Assembly: GCA_031396445.1 (NCBI GenBank)
Contig: JANNKU010000028.1
Span: forward strand, 20,651 to 84,650
Length of the DNA stretch: 64,000 bases
Source of the DNA: Deltaproteobacteria bacterium
GTDB lineage: Bacteria; Myxococcota_A; UBA9160; PR03
Reading direction: 5' to 3'
Shown here: in pieces, positions 5,689 to 27,121 of the stretch
Layout of the letters: each line of letters begins with the position of its first letter
Numbering within the stretch: position 1 is the first letter of the stretch
The notes under the pieces: generated by a model
What the model saw: only the letters and a program-made list of their open reading frames with translations
Told to the model about the DNA's origin: nothing
Databases searched by the model: none
Made by a program: the position numbers and the translations under genes

Positions 5689-6708
5689 ATGAGCAGCCAG
5701 GCGGCATTTCATTTCGGCGCGCGCGCGGCGGCGGATCCCTTCCTGCGGCTCGCGGGCGACTCGCGCGCGATGGCAACGCTGCGCCACTCGCTGCGCCGCG
5801 TCGCATGTGCCGACGCAACGGTGCTGCTGGGCGGCGAGACGGGCACCGGGAAGGGCCTCGTCGCGCGATTGCTGCACGACGCCTCGGCGCGCGCCGCGGC
5901 GCCGTTCGCGCACGTCGATTGCGCCGCACTCGCGCCGAGCGTGATCGAGAGCGAACTCTTCGGCCACGAACGCGGCGCCTTCACCGGCGCCGATGCGTGT
6001 CGCCCAGGCCGCCTCGAAGCCGCCGCTCGCGGCACGCTCTTCCTCGACGAGATCGCCGAACTCGAGCCGCGCCTGCAATCGAAACTATTGCGCGCGCTGC
6101 AAGATCGCAGCTTCGAGCGCGTCGGCGGCACGCGCACGCTCAGCTTGACGGCGCGCGTCGTCGCCGCGACGCATCGCGATCTGCGCCGCGCCGTCGCCGA
6201 CGGCAGCTTCCGCGCCGATCTCTATTTCCGCCTGCAAGTCTTCGAAGTGACGCTGCCGCCGCTGCGCGAACGCCTCGACGATCTGCCCGCACTCGTCGCG
6301 CGCGGCCTCGCTGCGATCGCAGAGCGCATCGGTCGCGCCGCGCCGCGCTGCACCGACGCATTCCTCACCTCGCTCGCGCGCCACCGCTGGCCCGGCAACG
6401 TGCGCGAACTCTGGAACCTGCTCGAACGCCTCGTCGTGCACGACGAGGATGGCGTGCTCGATGCCGTCGATGCGGAGGCGGCGCTCGATGCGTCACTCGT
6501 CGATCTCGGCGCGATCGCGCTGACGCCTTCACCGATGCGAATCGCGGAGGCGCCGGAATCGAGCGACGACCGCACGCGCGTCGCCGCCGCGCTCGTCGCC
6601 GCGGGCGGCAACGTCGCGCGCGCGGCACGAAGGCTCGGCCTCGCGCGCACGACACTGCGGCATCGCGTCGATCGCTATGGGCTGCGCGAACTGATTCCGC
6701 GGGATTGA
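5689..6708 (+). CDS. Sigma-54-dependent transcriptional activator without an N-terminal sensory domain (PspF/HrpS-like architecture)
   Basis: Frame of track ORF 5329..6708, started at MSSQAAF (ATG 5689). Walker A GETGTGKG, intact GAFTGA loop (ERGAFTGA), Walker B FLDEI, WPGNVREL, C-terminal Fis-type HTH (VARAARRLGLARTTLRHRVDRYGL). Only about 25 residues precede the AAA+ core. Confidence 0.9.
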   Translation: MSSQAAFHFGARAAADPFLRLAGDSRAMATLRHSLRRVACADATVLLGGETGTGKGLVARLLHDASARAAAPFAHVDCAALAPSVIESELFGHERGAFTGADACRPGRLEAAARGTLFLDEIAELEPRLQSKLLRALQDRSFERVGGTRTLSLTARVVAATHRDLRRAVADGSFRADLYFRLQVFEVTLPPLRERLDDLPALVARGLAAIAERIGRAAPRCTDAFLTSLARHRWPGNVRELWNLLERLVVHDEDGVLDAVDAEAALDASLVDLGAIALTPSPMRIAEAPESSDDRTRVAAALVAAGGNVARAARRLGLARTTLRHRVDRYGLRELIPRD

Positions 6709-6779
6709 TTGGCCGACGAGCCGCCATCCACCGAACGACGCATCGGCAACGAGCGCAATACTGGGGAGTGGCGAAGCCT

Positions 6780-7433
6780 CTAGCGTTCCCGGGTTCCGGA
6801 TTGCATCGGCACGAGCCCCGCCTCGCCAAGTACCTCAGCGATTTGCTCCGCGTCACGACGCGATGCAGCCCAGCGAATCATGCCGCCCGTGGGTCTGCCG
6901 TGTTCGTCGCAGCGCCGTACCAGAAACCACAGTCCAGGCTCCGCCCCTCGCGGGGTCTGCTCGATCGTTCCGGCTTCCTCGACGCAGTAGGCGAGACCCT
7001 TCTTCCACGAAAGCCCGTCGCGCGATTCCCATCCCGGCATATGCGGGGCGAGACGCGCGATCGCGGAGTGCACCAGGAACTCCGAGCGCGACATGCCCGA
7101 GGTGCGCGCCCCGATGTCGATCTTGCGCAGACTCCTGGCAGGCGTCGTTATGTTGATCCGCGTCATCTTCTCCGGCTTCAGCGCCAGGTCCACGAGCACG
7201 ATGGCGGCGTCTTTCGCTTCTGCCGCCTCGCGCACTTCGTCGAGCGTGCTCGGATCGGGGAGCGGAGCTCCGTCTTCGAGCATGCCGCGCGCGTGAAACT
7301 CGAGCGCGTCGGACGCGAGCTTGCGCGCCTCTTCGAGCGTCGCGCCGGCGGTCACGCATCCCGGGAAATCGGGGAAGCTGACGCCGTAGTCGCTGCCCAC
7401 TTCCTTGTGGATGAGAGCGATGTTGGTCGCCAC
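6780..7433 (-). CDS. HicB-family antitoxin-like protein (HicB fold + RHH) with an extra C-terminal domain of roughly 85 aa of unknown function
   Basis: GTG at 7433 is preceded by GGAGGA 7 nt upstream. HicB-like core: IALIHKEVGSDYGVSFPDFPGCVTAGATLEEARKLASDALEFHARGMLEDGAPLP. RHH-like segment: INITTPARSLRKIDIGARTSGMSRSEFLVHSA. An unrecognised tail follows (PGWESRDGLSWKKGLAYCVEEAG...WFLVRRCDEHGRP...). Confidence 0.7.
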   Translation of the reverse strand: MATNIALIHKEVGSDYGVSFPDFPGCVTAGATLEEARKLASDALEFHARGMLEDGAPLPDPSTLDEVREAAEAKDAAIVLVDLALKPEKMTRINITTPARSLRKIDIGARTSGMSRSEFLVHSAIARLAPHMPGWESRDGLSWKKGLAYCVEEAGTIEQTPRGAEPGLWFLVRRCDEHGRPTGGMIRWAASRRDAEQIAEVLGEAGLVPMQSGTRER

Positions 7434-7722
7434 GCGCCGTCCTCCCCAGGCTCTTTCCGGTGATTCCGGCCCGCTTCGCGATGCTCGGAAGTCAGCGGAC
7501 GTGTAGAAGCGGAGCGGTGAAATTCTCTCCGAGCGCCCGCCGACCGTCACCATCCAACGCACGATTATGCTGGTCATGCTGCCGCCCAGATAGGCGTCGG
7601 CATAGTGGATTCTGATCGCGTGAGCCCCAGCCGGCCCGCGGGAGGGTGCCCGGGACCGTCCTCGCGTCAATTCCACTTCAATCCCCAACCAAACGCTCGG
7701 TAAATCCCCTTATCATCGGCGA

Positions 7723-10233
7723 ATGCGCCGCACGCTCCGTTCCACTCTCCTGCTGCTCCCCTACCTCGTCGGTCTCGGTTGCGACGATCCCCGCGTCGCC
7801 GACTTTGGCCTGCCGATCGCCGGCGGCGGTCTCCCGGTGACCGTCTTCGTGCGTGCAGGCGTGGCTCCCGCCGACGTCCAGATCGTCCTCGACGGCCAGG
7901 ACGTGGGGCCGCTCTTCACGGCCGGGCCGCAGGGTCTCAGCGCCACGCTTTCGCTGCCGACTCCTGGCACACATGAGCTCGCCGTGACGCAGCCCGGAAC
8001 GCTCGGCGTGCCGGTGCTGCAGAAGAAATTCTTCGAGGTGCCCGCACCTACGCCTACTCTTTCAAGCGTCACGCCCGCGGCGGGATCGATTCCCGTCACG
8101 TCCTGGTTTCGCTTCGAGTTCCAGCAGGATGTGAACGCCGCGATGTTCTCGGGCTTCGGCTTTGCGCTCTCTTGCGGCGGACAGCAGATCCCTCGTTTCG
8201 CCTACACCGTCGAGAACCGGAGCGTCGTGCTCGATCCGTTGCTCGCGCTCCCGGCGGGCGCTTGTCGTGTGGTCTGGCGCGATGCGAGCGGCGCGGTGGA
8301 ACGAAACTTCAGCGTTGCAGCGAAGGCGACCACTGCGCTCGCATCGGCGATCTACGACCGCGAGAGCCCGCTGGCGTTCGCACCCTTCCCGGACGATTGG
8401 TGGACCGCGGGCGGCGTCGACACACCGACCGGTTTGCAGCTCGCCTTCTACGGGCCGGCCTTCGGCGATCTGCGCGACGGCGTGGTCGGCGGCATCGCGG
8501 CTTCGATGGCAGAGCTGGATGGGTGGAGCCCGATCGGACCGATCGTGCTCTCCTTCTCGCACGCGGTCGAACGATCGCTGCTTCCCGCGGATGAGTTCGC
8601 GGCGCAGAGTCCGTTCTCACCGATCGCGATCGTCGATGTCGATCCCGCCAGCCCTGAATACGGGGCGCGAATTCCTTTCCTGGTCGAAGCGCGCGACGAC
8701 CGGGCGCCGAACGGGAGCATCGATCACACGCTCATCTTGTTTCCATCGATCACGCTACGGCCGCATGGGCGCTACGCCGTGGTCGTCACGCAGCGGCTGA
8801 TCGCGGCCGGCGATGCCACGCGCCCGATCGGTCGCTCGGGATTTTTCCATCGCGCGGCGAGCGATCCGACGCTCGCGTCGACACCGGAAGAGGATTTCAT
8901 CCGCGAGACCATCGCCCCGCTGCTGGAGATCCTCGAAACCGCGCCGTCGGTTCCGATCTACCGGAACGACGTCGCGCTGGTGCTCAGCGTGTCCACGCGT
9001 TCGACGCTGCGGGATCCGTCGGACATGGTCGCGATCAAGGAAAATGCGCTGGTCGCGCCGCCGCCGGTGCTGACCGTCACGAGCATCAGCACCTCGGCGC
9101 AGCGGCGTCTGATCGTGCGCGGCACGCTCGCGATTCCGAGCTATCTGCCGCCGGACGACATGAGCGATCTCACGCGCGACGCGCAGAGCGGTCGCCCGCT
9201 CTCCGAGACCACCGAGGCCGTGCCCTTCACGATGACGCTTCCGAACCAGGCGCTCGCTGGACCAGTTCCGATCGCGATCTTCCAGCACGGAAGTCCGGGT
9301 ACACAGGAAGACGTTCTCAGCGTCAACAACGAATTCCTCGACGATGCCGGCTACGCGATCGTCGGGATCCAGGACACGGCGAACCGTCGCTTCGGCGACG
9401 ACTCCACGCTGCAGACCGTGGGCGTCTTGTTGCATCTGGTGGAGTTCGGGCACATCCCGCTACTCGAGTTGCAGACACACGCCGACTTGCAGTCGCTCGT
9501 GCGTGCCCTCGAGGGGATCGCCGCGAGCGACTGGTTGCCGAACGGTGCACCCAATGGCGTGCCCGAGCTCGACACTTCGAAGATCGTCTACCGCGGTGTC
9601 AGCTTCGGCGCGCATCACTCGCTCGGCTTCCTGCCCTTCGCACCCGAGGTGCGCGCGGCGGCGAGCATCGTGGGCGCCGGGCGATTCTTCGAGAATTCGA
9701 TCCACCAGATCGACCACTACGGTGTGTTGGGCCAGATCCAGCAAGTGATCCCCGCGCTCCGTCCGATCGAATTGCTCGTGGGTCTCGCGGCGCTGCAGAA
9801 CGACGAAGATCGCCAGGATCCGCATCTGCTGGCGCGATACTTGTACCGGGAGCGACTGCCGATCGCGGGGATCTCGCCGTCGGCGCAGCCGCCGAGCCTG
9901 CTGTGGACCGAGGGCATCGGCGACACCGTCGTCTCGAACAACGCCACGCGCGCGGCGGCCCGAGAACTGGGCATCCCGCAGGTGCAGCGCGTGAAGCGCG
10001 CTTCGCCTGGGCTCGAGCAGGTGCCCGCGCCGCTTGCGGGCAACATCGGCCCCACGCGCACGGCGGGTCATTTCCAGTACGTGCCTTCGCAAACACCGAG
10101 TTGCGTCGCTGTGGGCTTGACGCAAGGCCATCACTGCCCGCAGCGCGCGACGGAGGCCCGGCAGCAGATCCTCACCTTCTTCTCGACCGCGCTCGCGGGC
10201 GGAGCGCCGCAGATCATCGATCCGTTGCCTTAG
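7723..10233 (+). CDS. Secreted lipoprotein: N-terminal Ig-like (SbsA_Ig-type) domains + C-terminal alpha/beta-hydrolase (lipase/esterase-like)
   Basis: Signal/lipobox-like N-terminus MRRTLRSTLLLLPYLVGLGC. Nucleophile elbow GVSFG (YRGVSFGAHHSLGF). IAIFQHGSPG oxyanion-like segment. 836-aa intact ORF. Confidence 0.7.
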   Translation: MRRTLRSTLLLLPYLVGLGCDDPRVADFGLPIAGGGLPVTVFVRAGVAPADVQIVLDGQDVGPLFTAGPQGLSATLSLPTPGTHELAVTQPGTLGVPVLQKKFFEVPAPTPTLSSVTPAAGSIPVTSWFRFEFQQDVNAAMFSGFGFALSCGGQQIPRFAYTVENRSVVLDPLLALPAGACRVVWRDASGAVERNFSVAAKATTALASAIYDRESPLAFAPFPDDWWTAGGVDTPTGLQLAFYGPAFGDLRDGVVGGIAASMAELDGWSPIGPIVLSFSHAVERSLLPADEFAAQSPFSPIAIVDVDPASPEYGARIPFLVEARDDRAPNGSIDHTLILFPSITLRPHGRYAVVVTQRLIAAGDATRPIGRSGFFHRAASDPTLASTPEEDFIRETIAPLLEILETAPSVPIYRNDVALVLSVSTRSTLRDPSDMVAIKENALVAPPPVLTVTSISTSAQRRLIVRGTLAIPSYLPPDDMSDLTRDAQSGRPLSETTEAVPFTMTLPNQALAGPVPIAIFQHGSPGTQEDVLSVNNEFLDDAGYAIVGIQDTANRRFGDDSTLQTVGVLLHLVEFGHIPLLELQTHADLQSLVRALEGIAASDWLPNGAPNGVPELDTSKIVYRGVSFGAHHSLGFLPFAPEVRAAASIVGAGRFFENSIHQIDHYGVLGQIQQVIPALRPIELLVGLAALQNDEDRQDPHLLARYLYRERLPIAGISPSAQPPSLLWTEGIGDTVVSNNATRAAARELGIPQVQRVKRASPGLEQVPAPLAGNIGPTRTAGHFQYVPSQTPSCVAVGLTQGHHCPQRATEARQQILTFFSTALAGGAPQIIDPLP

Positions 10234-10426
10234 CGGCGTCGCTCGAAACTTCTGGTCGAAAACTTCGCACGACGTGACCGAAGCTGTCACGCGGCCGTGG
10301 TCTCCTGCTCTTCGAGCCAGGCGCCGACCAATCTGTCCCCCTCGAATCGACCCTCGGTCGACGGCGCCTGGCTCGAAACCTCTTGCCGCTCACGGCAACG
10401 AAGTAGAGAGATGGAGGTTCGCAGCC

Positions 10427-10663
10427 ATGGCTCGATCTCAGACGACCGCACGGCGCCTCACGGCCCGCGCGCTCACCCCCGAAGCTTGTGGAGTATGCAG
10501 CGGCGCCGACGTCGCGATCGATGAGGTCTTCGAGCGCGGCCTGTGGCTGCTCTCGGAGTGCCGGCGTTGCCAACATCAATGGACCGAAGGCCCGCTCGCG
10601 AGCCCGCGCGGGCCGGTGGTTCGCGCGGTTGCGGCGGCGGTGGATCAGCAAGCGGCCGCGTAG
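10427..10663 (+). CDS. Small CxxC...CxxC zinc-ribbon protein
   Basis: ATG at 10427 is preceded by GGAGG. Translation: MARSQTTARRL...EACGVCSGADVAIDEVFERGLWLLSECRRCQHQW. It sits 46 nt upstream of the ArsA-like genes on the same strand. Confidence 0.55.
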   Translation: MARSQTTARRLTARALTPEACGVCSGADVAIDEVFERGLWLLSECRRCQHQWTEGPLASPRGPVVRAVAAAVDQQAAA

Positions 10664-10709: not shown

Positions 10710-13076
10710 GTGAGATTGGTTTTCTACACGGGCAAGGGCGGCGTCGGCAAGACGACGACGGCGGCGGCCAGCGCCGCGCACGCGGCAACGCTCGGCCACC
10801 GCACGCTGGTGCTCTCCGCCGATCCGGCGCACAGCCTCGGCGATGTGCTCGGTGTCGCGCTCGATACGAAGACGACGACGCCCGTCGATGTGGCGCGCCG
10901 ACTCCGCGCGCTCGAAGTCGATGCGCGCGCGACGCTCGATCCGCACTGGGGCGCGATTCGCGACTACCTCATCTCGCTCTTTCGCCATCAGGGCATCGAG
11001 GACGTGATCGCCGACGAGCTGGCGCTCTTGCCCGGCGCCGAGGAAGTCGCCGCGCTGCTCGCCGTCGAAGAGGCCGCGCGTTCGGGCGACTACGACCTCT
11101 GCATCGTCGATTGCGCGCCCACCGGCTCGACGCTGCGCCTGGTGACACTGCCGGAAGTCGCGAGTCGCACGCTGCGGCTGCTGCTGCGCGTGCAGCGCGC
11201 CGTCGCGGCGCTGGTGTCGCCGGTGGCGCGCGCCGTCGTCCCCGTGCCGCTGCCTGGCCCGGAAGTGTTTCGCGATCTCGATCAGCTTCTCTACAAGCGA
11301 CTCGTCACGCTGCGCGAGATGCTGCTCTCGGCAGACACGAGCGTGCGTATCGTCGTGACGCCCGAGCGCATGGTGATCGACGAGGCGCTGCGCGCGCACA
11401 CCGATCTCGCGCTCTTCGAATTGCGCTGCGATGCGGTCGTGATGAACCGGCTCTTCCCGCCCGAGGCCGCGGCGGAGGCGTTCTTCGAGGGCTGGGGCCG
11501 TTGGCAGGAAGAGCGACTTGCCGAAGTGAACGAAGTGTTTGCGCCGCTGCCGGTGCTGCGCGCTCCGCTCGCGCAGGATGAAGTGGTGGGCGCGGCGGCG
11601 CTCGCCGCACACGGCGCGCTGATCTTCGCGGGCGCCGATCCCCACGCGGTGCTCTGCGTTGCACCGCGACTGCGTTTCCCGCGCGACAAACGCGGCTATC
11701 GCGTCGAGCTGCCGCTGCCGCACGCGCGCAGCGACGCGCTCGATGTCGCGAAGCTCGACGACACGCTGGTGGTGCGCGCTGGTGGTGCGCACTGGCAACC
11801 GCCGTCGCGCGATTCCGCTGCCGCGCAAACTCGCGCAACTCTCGCTGGTGTCTGCGAAGCTCGAGGCCGGCATGTTGATCGTGCGGCTCGCGCCGGCTGC
11901 GGAGGGCGCGGGCTGATGCGCGTGGTGTTGCTCACCGGCAAGGGCGGCGTCGGCAAGACGACGCTCTCGGCCGCGACGGCACTCGGCGCGGCGGAACACG
12001 CGCATCGCGTGTTCCTGCTCTCGACCGATCCCGCGCACAGTGTCGGCGACGCGCTCGGCATGCCGGTCGGCGCGCGACCGGTCGAAGTGGCGCCGAACGT
12101 CGTCGCGCAGGAAGTCGCCGTGCTCGACGAACTCGATCGCTCGTGGTCGGCGATCCAGGACTGGCTGCGCCAACTGCTGCGAGAAGGCGCCGACGAGCTG
12201 CTCGCAGAAGAAGTGCTGGTGTTCCCGGGACTCGAGGAACTCGTCGCATTGCGCGCGATTCGCGAAGTCGAGGCGCTCGGCGATTTCGATGTGTGCGTCG
12301 TCGATTGCGCGCCCACCGGCTCGACGCTGCGCATGCTGCGTTTCCCCGACGCGCTCGCGGTGTTCATGGGCGGCCTCTTCGATCTCGAACGCCGCGCCGC
12401 GCGCGCGCTGCGACCGATCCTCGGCGCGATCGGCATGCGCGGCCTCGTGCCGAGCGACGAAGTCTTCGCCGCCTTCGAGCGACTGGTGCGCGACGTGGAC
12501 GACGTCCGCCAGATCCTGCTCGATGGCGATCGCACCAGCGCGCGGCTCGTCACGAACGCGGCGCGCGTGGTGGTGGACGAGACGCGACGCTCGTTCGCGT
12601 ACTTGTGCCTCTACGGCGTCGCGACCGACGCGGTGCTGGTGAACAGGCTGCTGCCCGAGGTCGCGCGCGACGGCTTCTTCGCGAAGTGGGTCGCGCGCGA
12701 ACACGAAGAGATGCTCTCGCTCGAAGCCAGCTTCGGCGTGCCGCTGCTGCGCGCCCAATTGCGCGCCGCCGAGCCGATCGGTGTCGAAGCGCTGCGCGCG
12801 CTGTCGCGCGAGATCTACGGCGATCGCGACCCCGCCGCGATCCTGCACCGCGGCCGCCCGCTGCGCTGGCGCAGAGTCGGCGCCGCCACGCTGCTCGAAA
12901 TCGATCTCCCCAACGTCTCGAAGGAAGAGATCGAAGTGACCGTACACGGCGAAGACCTCCACCTCCGCGTCCGCGACGCCCGCCGCGTGATCGCGCTCCC
13001 GGCGTCCCTGGTCGGCCGCCCCCTCACCAGCGCCACCCTCCGCAACTCCCTCCTCGAAATCCGCTTCGCCCGGTGA
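10710..13076 (+). CDS. Two tandem ArsA/GET3-family P-loop ATPase modules, each with an HSP20-like C-terminal domain. They read as one 788-aa ORF because of a 13-bp duplication (see findings).
   Basis: Module 1: MRLVFYTGKGGVGKTTTAAA...SADPAHSLGD...DCAPTG. Module 2 from ATG 11916: MRVVLLTGKGGVGKTTLSAA...STDPAHSVGD...DCAPTG. C-terminal LLEIDLPNVSKEEIEVTVHGEDLHLRVRDARRVIALP = ArsA HSP20-like domain. Confidence 0.85.
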   Translation: MRLVFYTGKGGVGKTTTAAASAAHAATLGHRTLVLSADPAHSLGDVLGVALDTKTTTPVDVARRLRALEVDARATLDPHWGAIRDYLISLFRHQGIEDVIADELALLPGAEEVAALLAVEEAARSGDYDLCIVDCAPTGSTLRLVTLPEVASRTLRLLLRVQRAVAALVSPVARAVVPVPLPGPEVFRDLDQLLYKRLVTLREMLLSADTSVRIVVTPERMVIDEALRAHTDLALFELRCDAVVMNRLFPPEAAAEAFFEGWGRWQEERLAEVNEVFAPLPVLRAPLAQDEVVGAAALAAHGALIFAGADPHAVLCVAPRLRFPRDKRGYRVELPLPHARSDALDVAKLDDTLVVRAGGAHWQPPSRDSAAAQTRATLAGVCEARGRHVDRAARAGCGGRGLMRVVLLTGKGGVGKTTLSAATALGAAEHAHRVFLLSTDPAHSVGDALGMPVGARPVEVAPNVVAQEVAVLDELDRSWSAIQDWLRQLLREGADELLAEEVLVFPGLEELVALRAIREVEALGDFDVCVVDCAPTGSTLRMLRFPDALAVFMGGLFDLERRAARALRPILGAIGMRGLVPSDEVFAAFERLVRDVDDVRQILLDGDRTSARLVTNAARVVVDETRRSFAYLCLYGVATDAVLVNRLLPEVARDGFFAKWVAREHEEMLSLEASFGVPLLRAQLRAAEPIGVEALRALSREIYGDRDPAAILHRGRPLRWRRVGAATLLEIDLPNVSKEEIEVTVHGEDLHLRVRDARRVIALPASLVGRPLTSATLRNSLLEIRFAR
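11764..11790 (+). repeat. Exact tandem duplication, period 13 bp (gctggtggtgcgc x2)
   Basis: 11765-11777 and 11778-11790 are identical. Removing one copy joins frame 0 to the frame of track ORF 11659..11916. Confidence 0.95.
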
Positions 13077-13217
13077 GAAAGGGGACGGTCCTCGAAGTGA
13101 CTGGCTGTCGACTGGAGGGACAGACTTGGGTGAAGCATGTCCCTGTAGTCATCAGCCAGTCACTTCGAGGACCGTCCCTAAAGTGACTCCAAAGTGACTG
13201 GGTGATGACTACAGGGA
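13072..13217. repeat. Foldback (MITE/REP-like) element, family A, copy 1
   Basis: 26-bp perfect inverted repeat: gggacggtcctcgaagtgactggctg (13082-13107) against 13153-13178. Nested inverted pairs: gggaca...tgtccc and ccctgtagtcat...atgactacaggg. It shares GGTGAGAAAGGGGACGGTCCTCGAAGTGACTGG with 61604.. and 48709... The TGA stop of the ArsA gene (13074-13076) lies inside it. Confidence 0.9.
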
Positions 13218-13248: not shown

Positions 13249-14010
13249 ATGCCGGAGCGGATCGTGTCGCTGGTGCCGAGCCTTACCGAGGCGCTCTTTG
13301 AGCTCGGGCTCGGCGATCGCGTGGTGGGTGTGACGGATTGGTGCGTGCACCCGGCCGATGGGGTCCTGGCGCTGCCCAAGGTTGGGGGCACGAAGGATGC
13401 GAGCGCGGCGGCGATCGTTGCGCTGGCGCCCGATCTCGTGATTGCGAACCACGAGGAGAACACGCGGCGCGTGGTCGAGCAGCTGCGCGCGGCGGGTCTC
13501 GCCGTCTGGGTGACTTACCCCCGCACGGTTCGCGAGGGCGCGACGTTGTTGCGCGAACTCGCCGCGCTCGGCGCGACGCCGGCCGCGATCGCCGCGATCG
13601 TCGAGCCGGTCGAGGCCGCCGTTATCGAGGCCGAAGCGGCCCGGCCCACGCTACCCGTGCGCGTCTTCTGCCCGATCTGGCGTGACCCGTGGATGGCGGT
13701 CGCCCGCGACACCTACATCCATTCGATGCTCGAGCTCTGCGGTGGCACCAACGTTTTCGCCGACCGTGGCGACCGCCGCTACCCGATCGTCACCCTCGAC
13801 GACGTCATCGCCGCCGCGCCCGAAGTGATCCTGCTGCCCGACGAGCCCTACGCTTTTGGAGTTCGCGATGCCCAGGACTTGGCGCGCCTCGACCTTCCCG
13901 CGAGCCATTCGGGACGAATCCATTGCGTAGACGGCACTTGGGTGTCGTGGTACGGTCCGCGCATTCGACCGGCCGTGACGGCACTCCGCTCGCTACTCCA
14001 GCCGAGCTGA
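13249..14010 (+). CDS. Periplasmic-binding-protein-fold (BtuF/TroA-like, cobalamin/siderophore-type) substrate-binding protein
   Basis: 253-aa ORF. Motifs: MPERIVSLVPSLTEALFELGLGDRVVGVTDWC...LPKVGG...PDLVIAN...EVILLPDEPY, a pattern typical of BtuF-like helical-backbone binding proteins. Confidence 0.75.
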   Translation: MPERIVSLVPSLTEALFELGLGDRVVGVTDWCVHPADGVLALPKVGGTKDASAAAIVALAPDLVIANHEENTRRVVEQLRAAGLAVWVTYPRTVREGATLLRELAALGATPAAIAAIVEPVEAAVIEAEAARPTLPVRVFCPIWRDPWMAVARDTYIHSMLELCGGTNVFADRGDRRYPIVTLDDVIAAAPEVILLPDEPYAFGVRDAQDLARLDLPASHSGRIHCVDGTWVSWYGPRIRPAVTALRSLLQPS

Positions 14011-14314: not shown

Positions 14315-15886
14315 ATGGTGCGGCGGAACACGAATCGGCAGACGGAGTTCGCTGTCTCGCGGTCGAGCGCTGGGACGCGCGCGATCGTCGCGGCAGCCAT
14401 CGCGGCGCTGAGCTTCAACGCAACCGGCGCAGGCGCCGCGACCGTCTCGGAAGTGCGCGTCGGTACCCACGACGACGGGCATACCCGCATCGTCGTCGAG
14501 CTCGACTCGGCCGCGGGCTATCGCCTGCAAGCGCCGAGCGAAGGGAAGGCGCCCGAGCTGATCGTCGATCTCGACGCCACCAGCATCGAGCGCGACGTCC
14601 CCTCGAAGAGCCGCGTCGTGAAGAAGGTCCACGTCGAGCCGACCGCCAATGGTTCGACCGTGCGCATCTCGCTCGCAACGGGCGACGTTGCGGTGAAAGA
14701 GATGTTGCTCGCGAACCCGCCGCGGATCGTGCTCGATCTGAAGGCGCGCGGTCCGATCCCGAAGAGCGATGCCGTGGCCGACGCGGCCGCCGAGACTTCT
14801 GTTGCCGCGGCGAGCCCCGAGAAGGTGGCTCTCGTGCCGCCGACACCGGCGAAGGTCGAAGCGCCGAAGAGCGAGCCGGTCGTCGTCGCGGCTGCCGAGC
14901 CCACGCCGGTCGTCGAGAAGCGCGAAGCGCCGCTCCAGCTCGAAGCGCCGCCGTCCGCAGTGGCGAAGCCGTCGAACTCCGCTGCGCCGTCGCAAGCGAA
15001 GCGCGACGCGATGCCGCCGCCGCCCACCGATCCGCAGCCCGAGTTCGAATCGACTGCCACGGAACCGGCGGCTGCAAAGCCCACCTTGATTCCGCCCGTC
15101 GATCGCGAGAAGAGCAGCGCGCAGCAGACGTCGCCCGCGACCTCGATCGCCGCCGCCGCCGAAGCGCGTCGCAAGGCGATCGCCGAGAAGGCGCAGAGTT
15201 CGAGCAGCGAATCGCTGATGGATCTCGCGATGAGTCCCATCGGACTTGGCGCGATTGGCGCCGTCGTGCTGCTGCTCGCGATCGTGGTGATGCGCCGCCG
15301 CCGCAGCGCGGAAGACGAGGATCCGCTCTACACCGTGATGTCGGCCGACGATGCCGGCGTGGGTGTCTCGATGGACGCCGCCTATCCGGTCACTGACGAG
15401 GCGGAGTTCCGCACTCCGGTGCTCGCGAACCTCGGCCCCTTCGATCCCGATGCGTTCGAAGAAGCGTCCGAACCGGCGATCCGCGACAACGGACCGCGTC
15501 AGCTCGCACTCGGCAGTGCGCCGATCGTGAGCGAGCCGGAAGCGAGCGTGATGCTCGGCGACGACTCCGACGCGGACTCGATCTTCGCGGCGGAGCCCGA
15601 AGTGATCGCATCGGCCGTGCCGGTGATGGCGCCGGCCTTCGAGCCGACGCCGGTCGCGCCGCATGTCGCGCAGATTTCCGCCGAGGTCGAGCGCCGCGTA
15701 TCGGAGCTCGAACGCCGCCTCGAACAACTCACCGAAGCGCGCGAGCGACTCGAACGACAGGTCGCAGCGCAGACCGAAGAGCTGCGCGTTCAGCGCGCGG
15801 CGATCGCTCGCACACAGCGCGTCGTGCGCACGATCGCAAAGACGGAAGACATGGCGACCGAGCCGGTGCCGCGGGCCAACGCATGA
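14315..15886 (+). CDS. AMIN-domain protein with Pro/Ala/Glu-rich linker, one TM helix and a C-terminal coiled coil
   Basis: Frame of track ORF 14201..15886; I prefer ATG 14315 (MVRRNTNRQ...). AMIN signature: VSEVRVGTHDDGHTRIVVELD...PELIVDLD and NGSTVRISLA...PPRIVLDLKA. TM: IGLGAIGAVVLLLAIVVMRRRRS. Heptad-rich tail: VERRVSELERRLEQLTEARERLERQV. Confidence 0.75.
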   Translation: MVRRNTNRQTEFAVSRSSAGTRAIVAAAIAALSFNATGAGAATVSEVRVGTHDDGHTRIVVELDSAAGYRLQAPSEGKAPELIVDLDATSIERDVPSKSRVVKKVHVEPTANGSTVRISLATGDVAVKEMLLANPPRIVLDLKARGPIPKSDAVADAAAETSVAAASPEKVALVPPTPAKVEAPKSEPVVVAAAEPTPVVEKREAPLQLEAPPSAVAKPSNSAAPSQAKRDAMPPPPTDPQPEFESTATEPAAAKPTLIPPVDREKSSAQQTSPATSIAAAAEARRKAIAEKAQSSSSESLMDLAMSPIGLGAIGAVVLLLAIVVMRRRRSAEDEDPLYTVMSADDAGVGVSMDAAYPVTDEAEFRTPVLANLGPFDPDAFEEASEPAIRDNGPRQLALGSAPIVSEPEASVMLGDDSDADSIFAAEPEVIASAVPVMAPAFEPTPVAPHVAQISAEVERRVSELERRLEQLTEARERLERQVAAQTEELRVQRAAIARTQRVVRTIAKTEDMATEPVPRANA

Positions 15887-15943
15887 TTTTCGCACCACGG
15901 CCGCAGACGGCCGCGCGCTACTAAACCGAAATAGGATCAGGGG
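15882..15943 (-). repeat. Hairpin repeat, family B, copy 1 (diverged)
   Basis: The reverse complement reads cccctgatcctatttcggtttagtagcgcgcggccgtctgcggccgtggtgcgaaaatcatg, which aligns with the copies at 42.26, 46.47-46.63 and 47.35-47.49 kb. The TGA stop of the AMIN gene (15884-15886) lies in its TCATGA-like end. Confidence 0.75.
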
Positions 15944-15978
15944 TCCGGCCCTGCCGGCCCCGCATGGACGGCGCGCGC

Positions 15979-16284
15979 TCAAATCTCGATGCGCCCGCCT
16001 GCGTCACAACGCGCTTCGATCGGCGGCGCGTAGGTCTCGGTGCTGGGAAGCAGCTCCTGGTAGATGACGGAACCCGAAGCGGCGCAGATCGGGACCGTCT
16101 GACCTTCCGTGAGCGACCCTTCGTACAACCACGTCGTACATTCCGCAGGCGCGCTCGCTTCGCAGACACGAACCTGCGTCGAAGACGGGTCGGCATCGAT
16201 CTTCGTGAGCTGGCAACAGACCGCCTGCGCCGAACCCGATTGCATCGCAAAGAAAAGCGCAACCATCACTCTCGAAATCTTCAT
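15979..16284 (-). CDS. Small secreted Cys-rich protein (101 aa, 6 Cys in the mature part)
   Basis: Internal ATG at 16284 of track ORF 15979..16596 is preceded by GGAGGA 5 nt upstream. Signal peptide MKISRVMVALFFAMQSGSAQA. Mature part: VCCQLTKIDADPSSTQVRVCEASAPAEC.... Divergent from the giant-protein operon. Confidence 0.7.
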   Translation of the reverse strand: MKISRVMVALFFAMQSGSAQAVCCQLTKIDADPSSTQVRVCEASAPAECTTWLYEGSLTEGQTVPICAASGSVIYQELLPSTETYAPPIEARCDAGGRIEI

Positions 16285-16363
16285 CGTTTCCTCCGATTCT
16301 TGATCGTCGAATCTACGCGCTGCGCGTTGACACAGAATCCATTCACCGTAGCATGCGCGCCGC

Positions 16364-16723
16364 ATGAGCAAGTTCACCGCGCATCGGATCGCCGCAGCGT
16401 TCGCCGCGCTGCTGTCGTCGATGGCGTTTGCCGGATCGGTCAGTGCCGTGACGCTCGTCTCGAGCTGGCCGATCGGTGGCGACTCCGTGCCGGTCACGAT
16501 GACGTTCACCGACTTGCCGAGCGGCAACGGCGTCGAGATCACCGTCTCGATTCCAGAAGGAACCGGCGATCTGCTCGGCCTCTTCGGAAATGTCACCGAC
16601 GAGAGCCTCGTCCCGCAGCTCGATACAGTCGGGTCGCTCGTGTACCAAGAACAGTTCGCGGCGAATCTCGTCTACAAGGTCGGTGGCGGCAACGAAGTCG
16701 CTCCGGTGCAGCAATGGGATTAG
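16364..16723 (+). CDS. Signal-peptide-bearing N-terminal fragment, in frame with the following giant ORF (separated by one TAG)
   Basis: MSKFTAHRIAAAFAALLSSMAFAGSVSA|VTLV... is a Sec signal with an AxA site. The ORF ends at TAG 16721-16723, and the next 20 codons remain open in the same frame up to the track start of ORF 16784. Confidence 0.65.
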   Translation: MSKFTAHRIAAAFAALLSSMAFAGSVSAVTLVSSWPIGGDSVPVTMTFTDLPSGNGVEITVSIPEGTGDLLGLFGNVTDESLVPQLDTVGSLVYQEQFAANLVYKVGGGNEVAPVQQWD

Positions 16724-16783
16724 GGGCTGCGCTTCGAGAGTTCCACCTGGCAGAGCGAAGACATCCACACCGTCACGTTTCAG

Positions 16784-19700
16784 TTGACCGCTCCGGGTTT
16801 GACGAGCGTTCATCTGCTCAACGCCGCCAACCAGGGCTGGTACTTCGGCGTCCGGATCCGCCACACCCTCGGCCCCAAAACAAAAGCGAGCATTGGCTTT
16901 CCGGTGAGCCCGCCGCCCGCCGGTATCGCGGCCACGATTGCAATCTCGACACCCGCCGAAGCAGCGCTCTTTGTGCAGAGCGACGTTCCTGTTGCTGGAA
17001 CCCTGACCGGGACGACGCCCATCGCCGTCACCGTGAATGGCATCTGGGCCTACCTCAGTTCGGGATCCGTCGGCTTTCAACGCACCCTCACGCTGACCGA
17101 CGGCACGCACACGATTCGCGCGCTTGCGGGCAACTCTTGGGGGCACATGGGCGATGAGGTCACGGTCACAGTCGATACGGTCGCGCCCGTCATCTCCATC
17201 GCGGCGCCAGCCGCCGGAACGCTCACGACTGGCGACTCGATCATCGTCTCGGGAACAGCGACCGACGCAACGAGCGGCATCGCGAGTGTCGTCGTAAACG
17301 GCGTCTCGGCGACACTCGTTGGGAGCGCCTTCAACGCATTGGTCCCGCTCGCGCTCGGCGCGAACTCGATCACGGCGACGGCGACGGATGTGGCGGGCAA
17401 CACTGCGGCTGCGTCCAGGAGCGTCACGCGCGGGATCACGCCGACCGTTGTCATCACCGCGCCTGCTGCAGGACTTCTCACGAACCAGACTCCGATCGCG
17501 GTCACCGGAACTGTGAGTGGCACCGTCCCCGTCACGGTGACAGTCAACGGCGTTGCGGCGACCGTCACGGGCGAAACGTGGACCGCGAGTGTCGCGCTCG
17601 GGGAAGGGAGCAACACGCTCAGCGCGAGCGCGGTGAATGCGTTTGGCAATGGCAGCAGCTCGGTGGCGGTGACGCTCGACTCGACTCCGCCGCTCGTCTC
17701 GATCGCCGCGCCCGCAAACGGGACGACAGTGACGAGCCAACCGATTGCAGTGAGCGGAACGGTCGCCGACGCGAGCGCGATCGCATCGCTCCACGTCAAC
17801 GGCGACCCCATCGCCGCGAGCAACTCGTTCGCGACGACTGCCGCTCTCGCAACCGGCTCGAACACGATCGTCGTCGAAGCTACTGACGCTGCGGGCAACG
17901 CCGGCTCTGCCTCGGTCGCTGTGACCTACCAGCCGGCGACGTCGCTCTCAATCGAAATTGAAACGCCTCCCGCTGGCGCCCTCTTCTCGAAGGCCGAGGT
18001 CGAGGTCGCGGGCGCCGTGAGCGATCCGGTCGCGTCGGTGCGCGTGAACGGTGTACTCGCGACTGTCACGGGCGAGCGGTGGGTCGCATCCCGCGTGCCG
18101 CTCGCGGAAGGCCCCAACACGCTCACGGCTACGGCGACACGCGGAAACGACAGTGCAGCGGCAGCCGTCGCCGTCACGTACAACGCGCCGCCGCAGGTGG
18201 TGATCACGTCGCCCGCCGCGGGTGCGCTCTTTCGAACCGATGCGACCGATGTCGAGGGCGTCGTCGATGATCTCGCGGCGTTCGTCGATGTGAACGGCGT
18301 CATCTCAAGCGTCGGCGCGGGTGGTCGCTTCGTCGCGAGCGGAGTCGCGCTCGCACCCGGCGACAACACAATCATCGCGCGCGCCATCGACACGCTCGGT
18401 GCGAAGGGCACCGACTCGGTCGCCGTCCTGCGCGACGACGCCGCGGCTGGTCGCACGCGCCTCGTGATCCGCGAGAGCAACAGGTGGGTGGAGCCCTTGG
18501 AGGTAGTCTTCGCGAGCCTCGGTGATTGGGATGAGAGCCTTCGCGTCGGCAACGATCTAGGAACCTTTCCGCGGCCCTACGACATCGGCCGCGAGCGATT
18601 CCAACCGGTACCCGACGTCCCAACGGTTTATCCCGGGGAGCAGGTCTTCCTGCTCTCGGAGGAAGCTGGAGATGTCGACTTCGTGTCATTCCTCGGCCAC
18701 GAGACGGCAGCGCATCTCTCCCAAGCGGGAGTGTCGACGTTCCCGATGGAAGACCTCGGTATCTACCTCCCGCTCGAGATGCTCGCGTTGCCGGAGGTTC
18801 TCGAGCCGGGCGACTTCGAGCCGCGCTTCTTCGCGGTCGGCGACTCGCTCCTTGTCGCTTGCATAGTCGACAGTTGCCCGCCCGGCTCCATCGAGGGTGG
18901 ACGCGTGCGGCTGCGGGCAACCCAAGACGGTGTGCAGCGCGAGATCGCTCTCGCTGTCGATGCGAGACGCCCCGAGTTCGAGTTCTTCTCGCCGGGCGGC
19001 AGCTCCGTGATCGCCGGTGGTCTGGTCACGGTGACGGGCGTCGTCCGCGACGCGGGTCCGCTGCTCGACACGGTGTCCTACACGGTGTCCGATGAGTTCG
19101 GCATCGTCGTGTACGAGGGGCTCGTTCCGCTCCTCGTCGATTTGATCGATGGACCGAGCCCGGCGTTCCGCGGCCGCTTCGCGATCCCTGATCTCGTGCT
19201 CGCCAATGGACTCCATTTCGTCGAGGTGACGGCCTGGGATTCGCTCGGCAATCGGCGGATCTCGGGCACCGAGTTCACGATCGACGCCGATGCGCCAGCC
19301 GCCTCGCTCTACTCGCCTCTCGACGGCTCGGCATTCGTTGAGAGCGAAGTCCAGGCATCGCTCAACTTCGGAGCGCCGACGACAATCGTTTCCGTGAACG
19401 AAGTCCCCGACGGCCGGAGTTTCCCTGCCGGGATAGCCGCCAACGTCCTCACGCTGCCGCTCACACTCGGCCCGAATCTCGTCGAAGTCGAAGTACAGAA
19501 CAGCGCCGGCGTCTTCCTACTCTCGTTCACGCTGCACCGCGTGAGCGAGCAGCGCGAGGTCCGCATCATCGCGCCCGTCGCCGGCAATCTCGTGAACACG
19601 CACACCCTCACCGTCATGGGCACCGTGCCCCTCGGCGCCCCCGCCGTACTCGTGAACGGCGTCCTCGGCGCGATCGCGCCCGACCGCGTGTCGTTCACGG

Positions 19701-22534
19701 CGACGATTCCGGTTCCCTCGACGGAGAACATCGTGATCGATGGCGACGTGGCGAGGAAGCCATTCGCGATCACCGCCGAAGCGCTTCCACTCGGCGGGAG
19801 CGCCACGGTCGAGGTGACGCCCGACTTCCAGTTGCCACAGTTCCGCGTCGTGCTGCCCGAGGACGGCGCGTTCACGAGCGAAGCCGCCGTGGCGCTCACG
19901 GGCTTCCTCTCCGAAGCCGCGACCGTATCAATCGAAACGCTCGATGGGCCGCTCGTGGTTTCGACCGTCCGCGACCGCGCGCGCGAGGACGCGGAGCCCT
20001 TCAATCCCTTCAACGCAAAGCAGTTCCATCGCTTCGAGCTGCCAGAGATTGCGCTCGCGACGGGCGCGAACGCGCTGACGCTCCGCGCGCGGGACCGGGC
20101 GGGGAACGAAGGCGCTCGCACCCTCACGCTGACACGGGGCGACACGAGCCTCGCGCTGGTGAGTCCTGTGTCCGGCAGCACCGTCGCCGAGCGCGTGACG
20201 GGCGTCATGGTGCGCGCGGCGGCGGACCTGACGATCGACGCATGCTTCGTCGCAGGCCGCCAGATTCCTTCGCTCGGCGGAGCCACCATCGGGGCAGGAG
20301 TCGATACGCCGATCAACGGCCTGCCGCTCGTGCCCGGTGCGAACGACGTGCGCATCGTCCATCACCGCGCGGGCGGCGCGAGCGAAGTGCTTCGCTTCCA
20401 GCTCACTTCGACGGCCGCCGACTACGCGACGGTCTCCGGCCACGTGACCGACGTGCGCACCGGCGAAGCCGTTGCCGGCGCGCTCGTCTCGATCACCGCG
20501 GGCGGCGTGAGCTTCACCGTCGCTACGGACGCCAATGGGAACTATCTCGCGCAGGTGGCGCCGGGTTCGATTGCGGTAGCGACCGTCGCCGAGGGCTACG
20601 CCGCGGCGAGCGCATCGGGCAGCGCCGCGGCAGGCGCGACGCTCGTCGCCGACGTCGGCCTCGCTTCGACCGGCGTTCCCGCAGTGGCGAATGAAGTGCG
20701 TATCCTCGTACCGCCCGCAGGAGCCGTGACCGACTTCGCGATGCTGACGGTCGTCGGCACGGTGCTCAATCCTACTTCTACTGTCACGGTGAACGGGATC
20801 GCGGCGCAGGTCGTGGGCAATCGCTTCACAGCCAAGCATGTGCCGCTCGCGATGGGGGCGAACACGATCGCGGCGAGCGCGATGGTGCTCGGGTTGCCGA
20901 ACGCGACGCGAAGTGTCGGCGTCGCGCGGTCGGATGAGCCGGTGTTGCAGGTGAAGCTGTTCTCGCCGCCGGATGGCGCGACGGTGCCGGGCGGCGGGAT
21001 CGTCGTGCGCGGCTTTGCGAGTGCGGAGACTGTGCTCGTTCAAGTCTCGGGCGGAGGAGTAGCGGTACCCGTGGAGGGGGTATTCGAGGCCGCGGACGTC
21101 GCGCTGCCGATGGACGCAACGGAGATTGACGTCTCGGTTCGAACGATCGACGGTGCCCAAACCGCCCTCGCGTCGAGTGGAGTCACCGTGGACCGCGTCG
21201 GGTCTGCCCTCGTGCTCGGCGCCGATCCCGTCAATGGGAATGTTCCGCTCGAGACCGAACTCCAGCTCACCGCCACGCTGCCGCTCATTGCCGTCGCGCG
21301 CATCGACTTCGATCTCGACGGCAACGGAGTCCTGGACGTGCTGGCAAGCGCCAGCGCGACTGCGAGTCTGACGATCTCGGAGCCGACGCTCAGGCTGGCG
21401 CGTGCCTATGCGACGACGCACTCGGGCGTGGAGCTTTCCGCGCCGGTCGCTCTGCACGCGCATCTGCCCGCGACCCCGCTCCGGAGCTTTGCCGCGGGCA
21501 ATCCCGTCGATCTAGCGCCCGGCGCGGGCAACGATCTCTACGTCCTCGACGCGACGGCTGGGCGGGTTACTCGCTATGACCAGGACGGAACGGAACTCGA
21601 TGGCTTCGGCAGCTCCGGCGCCGGTCCCGACCAACTTGCGAGTCCACAGGCGTTCGCCGTCGGCGCCGACGGTCGCTTCTATGTCGCGGATACGGGGAAC
21701 GACCGAGTCCAGGTATTCACTCCGGCCGGTACGTTCGAGCGCAGCATCGGGGCGGGAGATCTGAGCGGACCATCGGGCGTCGCGGTCGACGGAGATCTCC
21801 TGATCGTGTCGGACACCGGAGCAGGCCGGCTTCGGATCTTCCGGCTCGACGGAGCGCCAGTCGCATCGGTTCCGATCGCGAATCCTCGTGGCATTGCGAC
21901 GACGGCCGCCGGCGGCGTTCTCGTCGCGAGTCCGAGCCAGGGGCTCCGTACTTTCTCGGACGGAGTGCTCACGACGATCGCGGCGATCGAGTCGCTGCCG
22001 CCCGAGCAACAGCCCGCATCACCGGTGGATGTCGTGGAAGGATCGGACTCGACGCTCGTAGCGGGCGCGTCGACTGGATCGGTCGTGCAGTTCTGGCCGA
22101 GTCTTCGGCTGCGACGGGTGATCTCCGACGTGGCGGGCGCGAAGGCTGTGCTCACCGGCCAGCGGCGGGAGATCGAGTCGATCTATGTCGCCGATGGAAA
22201 GCGGGTCACCGAAGTCGGTCTACCCGTTCCTTCGCCGCTGCCCACGCTGACGGCGCTGAAGGCGCGACTGCTCGCGCTGGACATCGAGGGCGCGCTCGAG
22301 TGGATCTCGCCGGAGCGACGAGCGTATTTCCGCGACGTCTACGAACGGAGCGGCGCAACGTTGGCAACCGAGGCCGCTGCGATGGGCCAACTCGACATCG
22401 ATCTCTTGCGGGAAGGTCGCGCAATCGCGCTGATCCATCGCGAAGTGCAGGAACCCACGGGCCCGGTGGATCGTCAGTATCCCGTGTATCTCGTGCGGTC
22501 GGCGGACGGAAGATGGCTCGTTCTCGACTACTGA
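16784..22534 (+). CDS. Giant surface/secreted protein: at least 11 Ig-like modules, a CarboxypepD_reg-like domain, an NHL-repeat beta-propeller and an NTF2-like C-terminal domain
   Basis: 1916-aa ORF. Recurrent module: ..P..G......I.VSG.V.D.....V.VNGV.A...G..F.A.V.L..G.N.I.A.A.D.AGN.....V.VT. CarboxypepD_reg segment: TVSGHVTDVRTGEAVAGALVSITAGGVSFTVATDANGNY. NHL repeats: FYVADTGNDRVQVFTPAGTF, LLIVSDTGAGRLRIF. The track start is a TTG with no signal peptide. Confidence 0.8.
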   Translation: MTAPGLTSVHLLNAANQGWYFGVRIRHTLGPKTKASIGFPVSPPPAGIAATIAISTPAEAALFVQSDVPVAGTLTGTTPIAVTVNGIWAYLSSGSVGFQRTLTLTDGTHTIRALAGNSWGHMGDEVTVTVDTVAPVISIAAPAAGTLTTGDSIIVSGTATDATSGIASVVVNGVSATLVGSAFNALVPLALGANSITATATDVAGNTAAASRSVTRGITPTVVITAPAAGLLTNQTPIAVTGTVSGTVPVTVTVNGVAATVTGETWTASVALGEGSNTLSASAVNAFGNGSSSVAVTLDSTPPLVSIAAPANGTTVTSQPIAVSGTVADASAIASLHVNGDPIAASNSFATTAALATGSNTIVVEATDAAGNAGSASVAVTYQPATSLSIEIETPPAGALFSKAEVEVAGAVSDPVASVRVNGVLATVTGERWVASRVPLAEGPNTLTATATRGNDSAAAAVAVTYNAPPQVVITSPAAGALFRTDATDVEGVVDDLAAFVDVNGVISSVGAGGRFVASGVALAPGDNTIIARAIDTLGAKGTDSVAVLRDDAAAGRTRLVIRESNRWVEPLEVVFASLGDWDESLRVGNDLGTFPRPYDIGRERFQPVPDVPTVYPGEQVFLLSEEAGDVDFVSFLGHETAAHLSQAGVSTFPMEDLGIYLPLEMLALPEVLEPGDFEPRFFAVGDSLLVACIVDSCPPGSIEGGRVRLRATQDGVQREIALAVDARRPEFEFFSPGGSSVIAGGLVTVTGVVRDAGPLLDTVSYTVSDEFGIVVYEGLVPLLVDLIDGPSPAFRGRFAIPDLVLANGLHFVEVTAWDSLGNRRISGTEFTIDADAPAASLYSPLDGSAFVESEVQASLNFGAPTTIVSVNEVPDGRSFPAGIAANVLTLPLTLGPNLVEVEVQNSAGVFLLSFTLHRVSEQREVRIIAPVAGNLVNTHTLTVMGTVPLGAPAVLVNGVLGAIAPDRVSFTATIPVPSTENIVIDGDVARKPFAITAEALPLGGSATVEVTPDFQLPQFRVVLPEDGAFTSEAAVALTGFLSEAATVSIETLDGPLVVSTVRDRAREDAEPFNPFNAKQFHRFELPEIALATGANALTLRARDRAGNEGARTLTLTRGDTSLALVSPVSGSTVAERVTGVMVRAAADLTIDACFVAGRQIPSLGGATIGAGVDTPINGLPLVPGANDVRIVHHRAGGASEVLRFQLTSTAADYATVSGHVTDVRTGEAVAGALVSITAGGVSFTVATDANGNYLAQVAPGSIAVATVAEGYAAASASGSAAAGATLVADVGLASTGVPAVANEVRILVPPAGAVTDFAMLTVVGTVLNPTSTVTVNGIAAQVVGNRFTAKHVPLAMGANTIAASAMVLGLPNATRSVGVARSDEPVLQVKLFSPPDGATVPGGGIVVRGFASAETVLVQVSGGGVAVPVEGVFEAADVALPMDATEIDVSVRTIDGAQTALASSGVTVDRVGSALVLGADPVNGNVPLETELQLTATLPLIAVARIDFDLDGNGVLDVLASASATASLTISEPTLRLARAYATTHSGVELSAPVALHAHLPATPLRSFAAGNPVDLAPGAGNDLYVLDATAGRVTRYDQDGTELDGFGSSGAGPDQLASPQAFAVGADGRFYVADTGNDRVQVFTPAGTFERSIGAGDLSGPSGVAVDGDLLIVSDTGAGRLRIFRLDGAPVASVPIANPRGIATTAAGGVLVASPSQGLRTFSDGVLTTIAAIESLPPEQQPASPVDVVEGSDSTLVAGASTGSVVQFWPSLRLRRVISDVAGAKAVLTGQRREIESIYVADGKRVTEVGLPVPSPLPTLTALKARLLALDIEGALEWISPERRAYFRDVYERSGATLATEAAAMGQLDIDLLREGRAIALIHREVQEPTGPVDRQYPVYLVRSADGRWLVLDY

Positions 22535-26222: not shown

Positions 26223-26223
26223 G

Positions 26224-27072: not shown

Positions 27073-27121
27073 TCGTCAGCCCGGAGTCGCCAGGCGCTCC
27101 GACTCATTGTGGAACGCGACT

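Follow-up and report, generated by a model that had tools for sequence, protein, structure and literature searches.

Does the 788-amino-acid (aa) open reading frame (ORF) that runs along a contig of a Deltaproteobacteria bacterium (GTDB lineage Bacteria; Myxococcota_A; UBA9160; PR03) encode a natural fusion of two ArsA-like ATPases, or is it what remains of two genes after the first lost its reading frame? The ORF lies in a window, by which we mean the whole stretch of DNA that was analysed, of 64,000 nucleotides (GenBank assembly GCA_031396445.1, contig JANNKU010000028.1, positions 20,651 to 84,650), and it contains a 13-bp unit repeated head to tail. We conclude, with a probability of roughly 0.88, that this duplication is a derived lesion, confined to this record, in the first (m1) of two putatively coupled GET3/ArsA-family genes (m1 and m2). 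The outcome would be a frameshifted m1, that is, a pseudogene or an accidental ORF fusion, and not an evolved two-domain protein. The features that carry the argument are these:

10710–13076, + strand: the fused ORF of 788 aa from the ORF list, made up of m1 residues 1–356, 46 out-of-frame residues and the 386 aa of m2.
10710–11777, + strand: m1 in its original frame, with a GET3/ArsA-family ATPase domain (residues 1–300) and the first half of an alpha-crystallin/HSP20-like domain, up to ...DDTLVVR (residue 356).
11764–11776, + strand: copy 1 of CGCTGGTGGTGCG, the copy found in all relatives.
11777–11789, + strand: copy 2 of CGCTGGTGGTGCG, the extra copy, causing a net +1 frameshift.
11791–11916, + strand: the displaced 3' end of m1, with codons starting at pos%3=1, which encodes TGNRRRAIPLPRKLAQLSLVSAKLEAGMLIVRLAPAAEGAG*, the second half of the alpha-crystallin domain, and is nonsense in the fused ORF.
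11901–11905, + strand: GGAGG, read from the sequence as a Shine-Dalgarno-like motif of presumed function, 10 nt upstream of the m2 ATG.
11914–11918, + strand: TGATG, in which the ancestral m1 stop (TGA, 11914–11916) overlaps the m2 start (ATG, 11916–11918); the same junction is found in 19 orthologous loci.
11916–13076, + strand: m2, an intact 386-aa GET3/ArsA-family ATPase with a C-terminal alpha-crystallin/HSP20-like domain, identified by Pfam, NCBIfam and PDB matches.

The duplication is genuinely present in the sequence and lies beyond any chance pattern. Its two perfect copies abut (local sequence AAGCTCGACGACA CGCTGGTGGTGCG CGCTGGTGGTGCG CACTGGCAAC, with ...GACGACA before and CACTGG after), and base 11790 (C) extends the 13-bp period, giving a periodic stretch of 27 nt and 1 nt of junction microhomology. 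An earlier note on this DNA had reported an exact 13-bp tandem duplication at 11764–11790, and this stands; its coordinates are those of the 27-nt stretch and its register, GCTGGTGGTGCGC, places the copies at 11765–11777 and 11778–11790. Tandem Repeats Finder reported period 13, 2.5 copies and 94% matches at 11764–11795. The unit has no further occurrence on either strand of the window. This is the sole perfect 13-bp tandem duplication there, against 0.0046 expected by chance in 64 kb at a per-base match probability of 0.282. For perfect duplications with units of 10–30 bp we counted 6 start positions, compared with a mean of 0.36 in 300 triplet shuffles; all 6 fall within the 13-bp repeat or within another of 25 bp, at 39176, that is described below.

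If present in the cells, the duplication is in kind an ordinary event of known type. It combines perfect adjacent copies, a unit length not divisible by 3, a single copy in relatives and a flanking direct repeat, as is typical of slipped-strand tandem-duplication frameshifts. In the single-copy state, that is, the reconstructed ancestral sequence, the imperfect direct repeat CGCTGG...CACTGG brackets the site with a spacing of 13 bp; if the event is real, mispairing of slipped strands between these two motifs would have generated the extra copy. The novel junction is GGTGCGCGCTGGTG (example junction k-mer, GCTGGTGGTGCGCGCTGGTGGTGCGCAC; single-copy allele, GACACGCTGGTGGTGCGCACTGGCAAC). We also observed that the E. 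coli Chi octamer GCTGGTGG starts the duplicated unit (11765–11772 and 11778–11785). The octamer occurs 5 times on each strand of the window, and we treat its position here as a coincidence of Leu-Val-Val codons.

The extra 13 nt shift the frame by a net +1 past m1 codon 356, and the fused ORF leaves the alpha-crystallin domain halfway. It then reads 46 out-of-frame, low-complexity residues (AGGAHWQPPSRDSAAAQTRATLAGVCEARGRHVDRAARAGCGGRGL) up to the m2 ATG at 11916. Pfam found two ArsA_ATPase stretches on the fused ORF, and its only strong ArsA_HSP20 stretch was that at residues 728–786; the corresponding m1 domain as sequenced is cut at roughly profile position 30. Removal of 11778–11790 in silico yielded an m1 of 397 aa, starting from the GTG at 10710, with the C terminus shown above for the displaced 3' end. 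This restored m1 matched ArsA_HSP20 (PF17886) over profile positions 3–62 of 63 (59.6 bits) and aligned with m2 from end to end (39% identity, E 2e-74), its tail (359–390) aligning without gaps to m2 354–385. The guanine-plus-cytosine (GC) content by codon position pointed the same way: 11791–11915 showed 0.74/0.57/0.83 in the shifted frame, and not in the frame of the fused ORF, close to 0.78/0.47/0.85 for m1 proper and about 0.78/0.47/0.86 for m1 and m2 together. The 125 bases past the duplication thus keep the coding signature of the old frame, and the event must be either recent or not biological.

These results bear out the account in the earlier note of a frameshift by duplication in which m1 departs from its HSP20-like domain after DTLVVR, reads a junk linker (there given as 40-odd residues) and enters m2 through the ATG at 11916 to form one 788-aa ORF. 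The restoration proposed there also gave the tail aligned to m2 and the TGATG junction that it described, together with a complete ArsA_HSP20 domain; the stated length of 402 aa was wrong. The +1 shift after codon 356 puts the second half of the alpha-crystallin domain out of frame, and the stop-free shifted frame lets the ORF run through into m2. If translated, the product would presumably be a first ATPase with a broken alpha-crystallin domain and about 100 partly nonsense residues tethering it to an intact m2. Judging from the spacing GGAGG-N10-ATG, m2 may still initiate independently.

Orthologous loci show which state is ancestral. We scanned one-genome-per-species contigs and metagenome contigs with the restored m1 and added one locus (L002) through a protein hit; all loci are from metagenome-assembled genomes (MAGs) of uncultured Myxococcota or 'Deltaproteobacteria' or from environmental contigs, and a few sequences occur in both collections. 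The duplication site was covered in 33 loci, at 57–93% amino-acid identity. Every one of them had a single copy at the site and a separate, intact m1 of about 397 aa (range of orthologues 393–400 aa), read in a single continuous frame through the site. In the DNA alignment, the 13-base insertion was confined to the window, and the closest relative (L003, 93% aa identity) carried an identical single-copy CGCTGGTGGTGCG. The orthologues matched m1 residues 1–362 of the window in one frame, beyond which matching ended. TGATG formed the m1/m2 junction in 19 orthologous loci and TAGATG in 4 more, followed by an m2 of about 386 aa. Over the approximately 13 kb shared with relatives we saw no other gene-breaking frame change.

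The earlier note had proposed a comparison with orthologous ArsA pairs and would have been refuted by relatives in which the 26-bp sequence recurs along with a conserved fused protein. We looked for this combination in the 33 loci and did not find it. Its view that two coupled genes came first is thereby upheld, and we take two separate, overlapping and putatively coupled genes to be both the ancestral and the prevailing state. We also considered whether the window might be a chimeric join at the duplication and rejected this, as identity to L003 and to L005 was equal on both sides. Away from the site, m1 orthologues vary in length: L002 (4388–5773, P0002), L027, L032 and L040 have a repetitive, low-complexity insertion of 50–120 aa past about residue 51, and that of P0002 includes SMFRRSERQRAGREAP twice. 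The insertions seem to mark a variable position in a surface loop.

Both genes encode members of the GET3/ArsA family. Each has the deviant Walker A motif GKGGVGKT and the signature DCAPTGS, and both exceeded the cut-off of 135 bits for TIGR00345 (TRC40/GET3/ArsA family transport-energizing ATPase; 204.3 bits for m2 and 209.2 for restored m1). ArsA_ATPase (PF02374) scored 229.6 and 238 bits, respectively, and m2 matched ArsA_HSP20 over profile positions 5–63 of 63 (51.3 bits). More specific models stayed below their cut-offs: 90 and 100.6 bits against 650 for the arsenical pump ArsA (TIGR04291), 126.6 and 109.8 bits against 325 for Get3d/NosAFP (NF050088), and 35–55 bits against 400/521 for BagA/BagB (NF053622/NF053621). 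As only the broad model was passed and the equivalog models failed, we assign m1 and m2 to the GET3/ArsA family and no further. The best solved relative is an archaeal Get3/ArsA (3zq6; E about 1e-38, for m2 1.5e-37). By analogy with related ATPases, m1 and m2 may form a heterodimer with two alpha-crystallin domains, one of which the lesion would destroy near its midpoint. The two genes also share an exact 35-mer, TCGTCGATTGCGCGCCCACCGGCTCGACGCTGCGC, spanning the VDCAPTGSTLR motif (m1 11104–11138 and m2 12298–12332), at an overall DNA identity of ~68%; this may reflect local gene conversion or strong codon constraint.

Why should a frameshift in m1 produce a long ORF instead of a truncated one? 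The earlier note ascribed the run into m2 to a coincidence of frame, and this did not hold. Given the TGATG overlap, m2 lies in the −1 frame with respect to m1. A net +1 insertion moves reading into this very frame, which in this genome of 68% GC is almost devoid of stops (7 in 2592 codons across six well-supported genes of the window). The chance that 42 successive codons contain no stop is 89% in the +1-insertion frame; the other shifted frame stops after 37 codons. No stop occurs among the 42 m1 codons that remain after the shift, and the ORF joins m2. Merger is thus the default outcome, and a fused ORF would result whenever 3n+1 nt are inserted or 3n+2 nt deleted late in m1. The 788-aa ORF follows mechanically from the overlap of the genes and from GC-rich codon statistics.

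The same stop-poor frame accounts for fused homologues of 720–790 aa in public protein sets and for a further fusion of this gene pair. We rejected four such proteins (P0004, P0012, P0014 and P0024) as natural fusions, since their middles are visibly out of frame and full of junk. The further case, the close relative L001 (GCA_026387695.1, JAPLLD010000786.1, positions 1–1796; P0001), is labelled 'ArsA family ATPase, partial' at NCBI. Compared with L003, it lacks 176 bp (3n+2) inside the m1 alpha-crystallin domain and reads 25 junk residues before m2. We looked for microhomology at the breakpoints of this deletion and found none. L001 gave no clear signal of being a two-strain chimera either, as L003 was its closest relative on both sides (91% and 93%).

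The presence of the duplication in the cells is a separate matter, on which we stand at about even odds: about half of the weight goes to a real, recent strain-level mutation, and about half to an error of assembly or consensus calling or to a minority variant that is not fixed. Contigs from the same population in the Logan collection (L058, L059 and L060, from SRR20217199, SRR20217202 and SRR20217201) match the window at 99.8–100% and end at 10758/10762 or begin at 13079. This gap is likely to be due in part to the 35-mer shared by m1 and m2, which is longer than the Logan k, presumably 31. Look-ups of the exact products of m2, restored m1 and the 836-aa upstream protein, made in search of a contig across the site, returned no match, and the fused 788-aa product was absent from the protein collection that we searched.

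The 25-bp repeat can be checked against independent contigs. It is a second perfect duplication (unit GCTCTGCGGAACGCATTGGCCGCGT, 39176–39225, plus 3 nt of microhomology to 39228), with the junction GGCCGCGTGCTCTGCGGAACGC at 39201, flanked by the short imperfect direct repeats CGCGCGCT/CGCGTGCT. It lies in a sulfotransferase-like gene (38443–39396, + strand) and causes a +1 frameshift of the C-terminal 50 residues that codon-position GC confirmed. (A six-frame Viterbi scan of GC for frameshifts proved too coarse, missing even the 125-nt shifted segment of m1, and was not used.) The product has 317 aa as sequenced and 300 aa with one copy deleted. The 300-aa form is 100% identical to P0121, encoded on the Logan contig SRR20217202_76342; the 317-aa frameshifted form is P0191 of the same cluster, found in the NCBI record only, on a contig of 99,942 bp. 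Since P0191 is in that public record, the duplications were not introduced after deposition. The contig that encodes P0121 (L057, 12,911 bp) differs from window positions 29362–42297 at 3 mismatched bases and by a single gap that corresponds exactly to the 25-bp copy. A search for more runs with the 25-bp site found it assembled in SRR20217202 only, and a search of the literature by run and assembly accession returned nothing.

Several of these observations weigh against our reading. No independent contig crosses 11764–11790. An independent assembly of a near-identical population lacks the 25-bp duplication, and two gene-breaking perfect duplications in 64 kb exceed a normal pseudogene load; this favours a technical origin or unusual strain-level variation. 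The earlier note had named an assembly artefact as a caveat, and the 25-bp duplication adds weight to it. The L001 deletion, which is independent of the 13-bp duplication, could hint that such fusions are tolerated or even favoured. Two perfect frameshifting duplications, one of them absent from an independent assembly, are in any case a warning about the source record.

The strongest competing explanation, to which we give slightly less than an even chance, is nested within the reading of a private lesion: the extra copy is an artefact of assembly, gap closing or consensus calling, or is carried by a minority of cells, and the true genome has two separate genes. The window has two perfect tandem duplications of non-triplet length (13 and 25 bp), each gene-breaking. 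An otherwise near-identical contig lacks the 25-bp one, for which alone such a comparison was possible, and the frameshifted product of that duplication is confined to the NCBI record. Annotation of m1 as a pseudogene in that record would also fit the absence of the 788-aa product from the protein collection. However, the assembly is not generally sloppy, as the 17.7 kb that we compared with independent contigs contained no indel besides the 25-bp copy, and the different lengths of the two duplications speak against a fixed k-mer overlap. Both are also flanked by short imperfect direct repeats, as expected of real slippage, and the SRR20217202 population differs from the window by single-nucleotide polymorphisms, so that strains may truly differ in the 25-bp copy.

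A real and adaptive fusion would mean that selection has kept a functional single-chain pseudo-dimer, as at the origin of the A1–A2 ArsA, and that the m1 alpha-crystallin domain is dispensable. We consider this unlikely. Both ATPase domains and their P-loops are intact, natural single-chain ArsA/Get3 pseudo-dimers are among the structure hits (1f48, 9nbl and 5zme), L001 is a second, independent fusion of the same pair, and in Get3d the alpha-crystallin domain is added peripherally, at the interface of the dimer (PMC10248533). Yet each fusion is a singleton in one record, and the GC periodicity that the nonsense linker retains from the old frame implies a very recent event. The intact domain and separate genes in all 33 other lineages indicate purifying selection on the very part that was lost. 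Fusion is moreover near-automatic for any 3n+1 shift, and to find it in two cases out of two is unremarkable (a chance of about 0.25); several public 'fusions' of 770–790 aa are themselves products of frame errors (P0004, P0014 and P0024). There is a slim chance that the window duplication and the L001 deletion are both real, in which case they would be independent conversions of a two-gene heterodimer to a single-chain pseudo-dimer minus one alpha-crystallin domain. They would then offer a live snapshot of the route to the fused A1–A2 ArsA, eased by TGATG and the stop-free shifted frame, and a heterodimer gene fusion in progress would be of modest evolutionary interest.

Tandem duplications can revert precisely by slippage, and a near-identical population without the 25-bp copy exists, so one might imagine phase variation in which gain and loss of the copy toggle m1 between an intact and a split or fused form. 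We find this very improbable: the 33 relatives always have one copy and show no copy-number variation at the site, a two-copy 13-bp unit is atypical of contingency repeats, we saw no multi-unit tract, and no conservation of repeat-prone sequence beyond codon needs was apparent. Programmed ribosomal frameshifting or recoding, giving an intact m1 from the duplicated DNA or a fusion by design, has two overlapping open frames to speak for it and nothing more, and is hardly credible given the single unshifted frame in 33/33 relatives, a site that is not conserved, no slippery heptamer noticed on reading the sequence (no dedicated search was made) and no Rfam family matched anywhere in the window.

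On the reading that we prefer, a lesion private to this record, the 788-aa 'ArsA' ORF should not be annotated as a natural fusion; it is the frameshifted first gene of a conserved pair. In GC-rich genomes with TGATG-coupled genes, a late 3n+1 insertion or 3n+2 deletion gives a plausible-looking fused ORF, and public protein sets already hold several such products from the GET3/ArsA family.

The m1/m2 pair sits between a small gene and a Peripla_BP_2 gene (13249–14010). The small gene is as follows:

10427–10663, + strand: a small upstream gene of 78 aa with two CxxC pairs, its exact product also encoded on the Logan contigs L059 and L060.

A 79-aa equivalent lies upstream of the L002 orthologue, and the upstream DNA is kept in L003–L006 and L008. 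A Pfam search with the 78-aa protein returned no hit. The gene is probably the first of an operon with m1. Further upstream, ~3.5 kb at 6708–10251 that carry the 836-aa ORF (7723–10233, no Pfam hit) are absent from L003 and present in L059 and L060.

Directly 3' of the m2 stop we observed a near-perfect hairpin of ~100 nt (13081–13178; RNA fold −87.6 kcal/mol, z = −12), which had no match in the whole-window Rfam scan. It is repeated at 61610–61720 and 48684–48739 and occurs in the same place in L001, L003, L004 and L006. It looks like a palindromic element resembling repetitive extragenic palindromic (REP) sequences or miniature inverted-repeat transposable elements (MITEs), or a strong terminator. 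Beyond it, ~11.2 kb (15877–27111) are absent from L001, L003–L005, L008 and L010, in which the flanks abut. This block encodes a 1916-aa Glucodextran_B/Ig-like/NHL repeat protein, a 1047-aa PD40 beta-propeller protein and a peptidyl-prolyl isomerase (PPIase), and is probably accessory.

Among known systems, the duplication is closest to the slipped-strand frameshift mutations of GC-rich bacteria, with which it shares a non-triplet head-to-tail copy that is single in relatives, a flanking repeat and a stop-poor read-through frame. Nothing essential sets it apart; here, owing to TGATG, the shift leads into the frame of the downstream gene, and the ORFs merge. The fused ORF recalls the ArsA of E. 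coli R773 (A1–A2 pseudo-dimer, 1F48, TIGR04291) in having two homologous ArsA-fold halves of the same superfamily joined by a linker. ArsA, however, is an old, in-frame and conserved fusion without alpha-crystallin domains and has DTAPTGH where both halves here have DCAPTGS, whereas the linker here is frameshifted nonsense private to one record.

As a gene pair, m1 and m2 resemble M. tuberculosis BagA/BagB (Rv3679/Rv3680), two Get3/ArsA-like ATPases whose chains are both found in one PDB entry (6BS3). We take these to be products of adjacent genes that act as a heterodimer. The similarity is distant only: the E-values lie at 1e-11 to 1e-12 with BagB, and with BagA at about 1e-6.

In domain architecture, the counterpart is Get3d/NosAFP (Nostoc All4481, 3IGF/8EGK; Arabidopsis Get3d, 8ELF), which combines the Get3/ArsA fold with a C-terminal alpha-crystallin domain (PF17886 in both). 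In Get3d this domain is a seven-stranded beta-sandwich at the dimer interface that contacts both monomers (Barlow et al. 2023, PMC10248533). The phmmer matches to 3igf (E 1.6e-14 and 2.4e-22) are weaker than those to archaeal 3zq6, and where the Get3d of cyanobacteria and plants forms a homodimer from one gene, the window holds a diverged pair of paralogues (39% identity) from a Myxococcota-like lineage.

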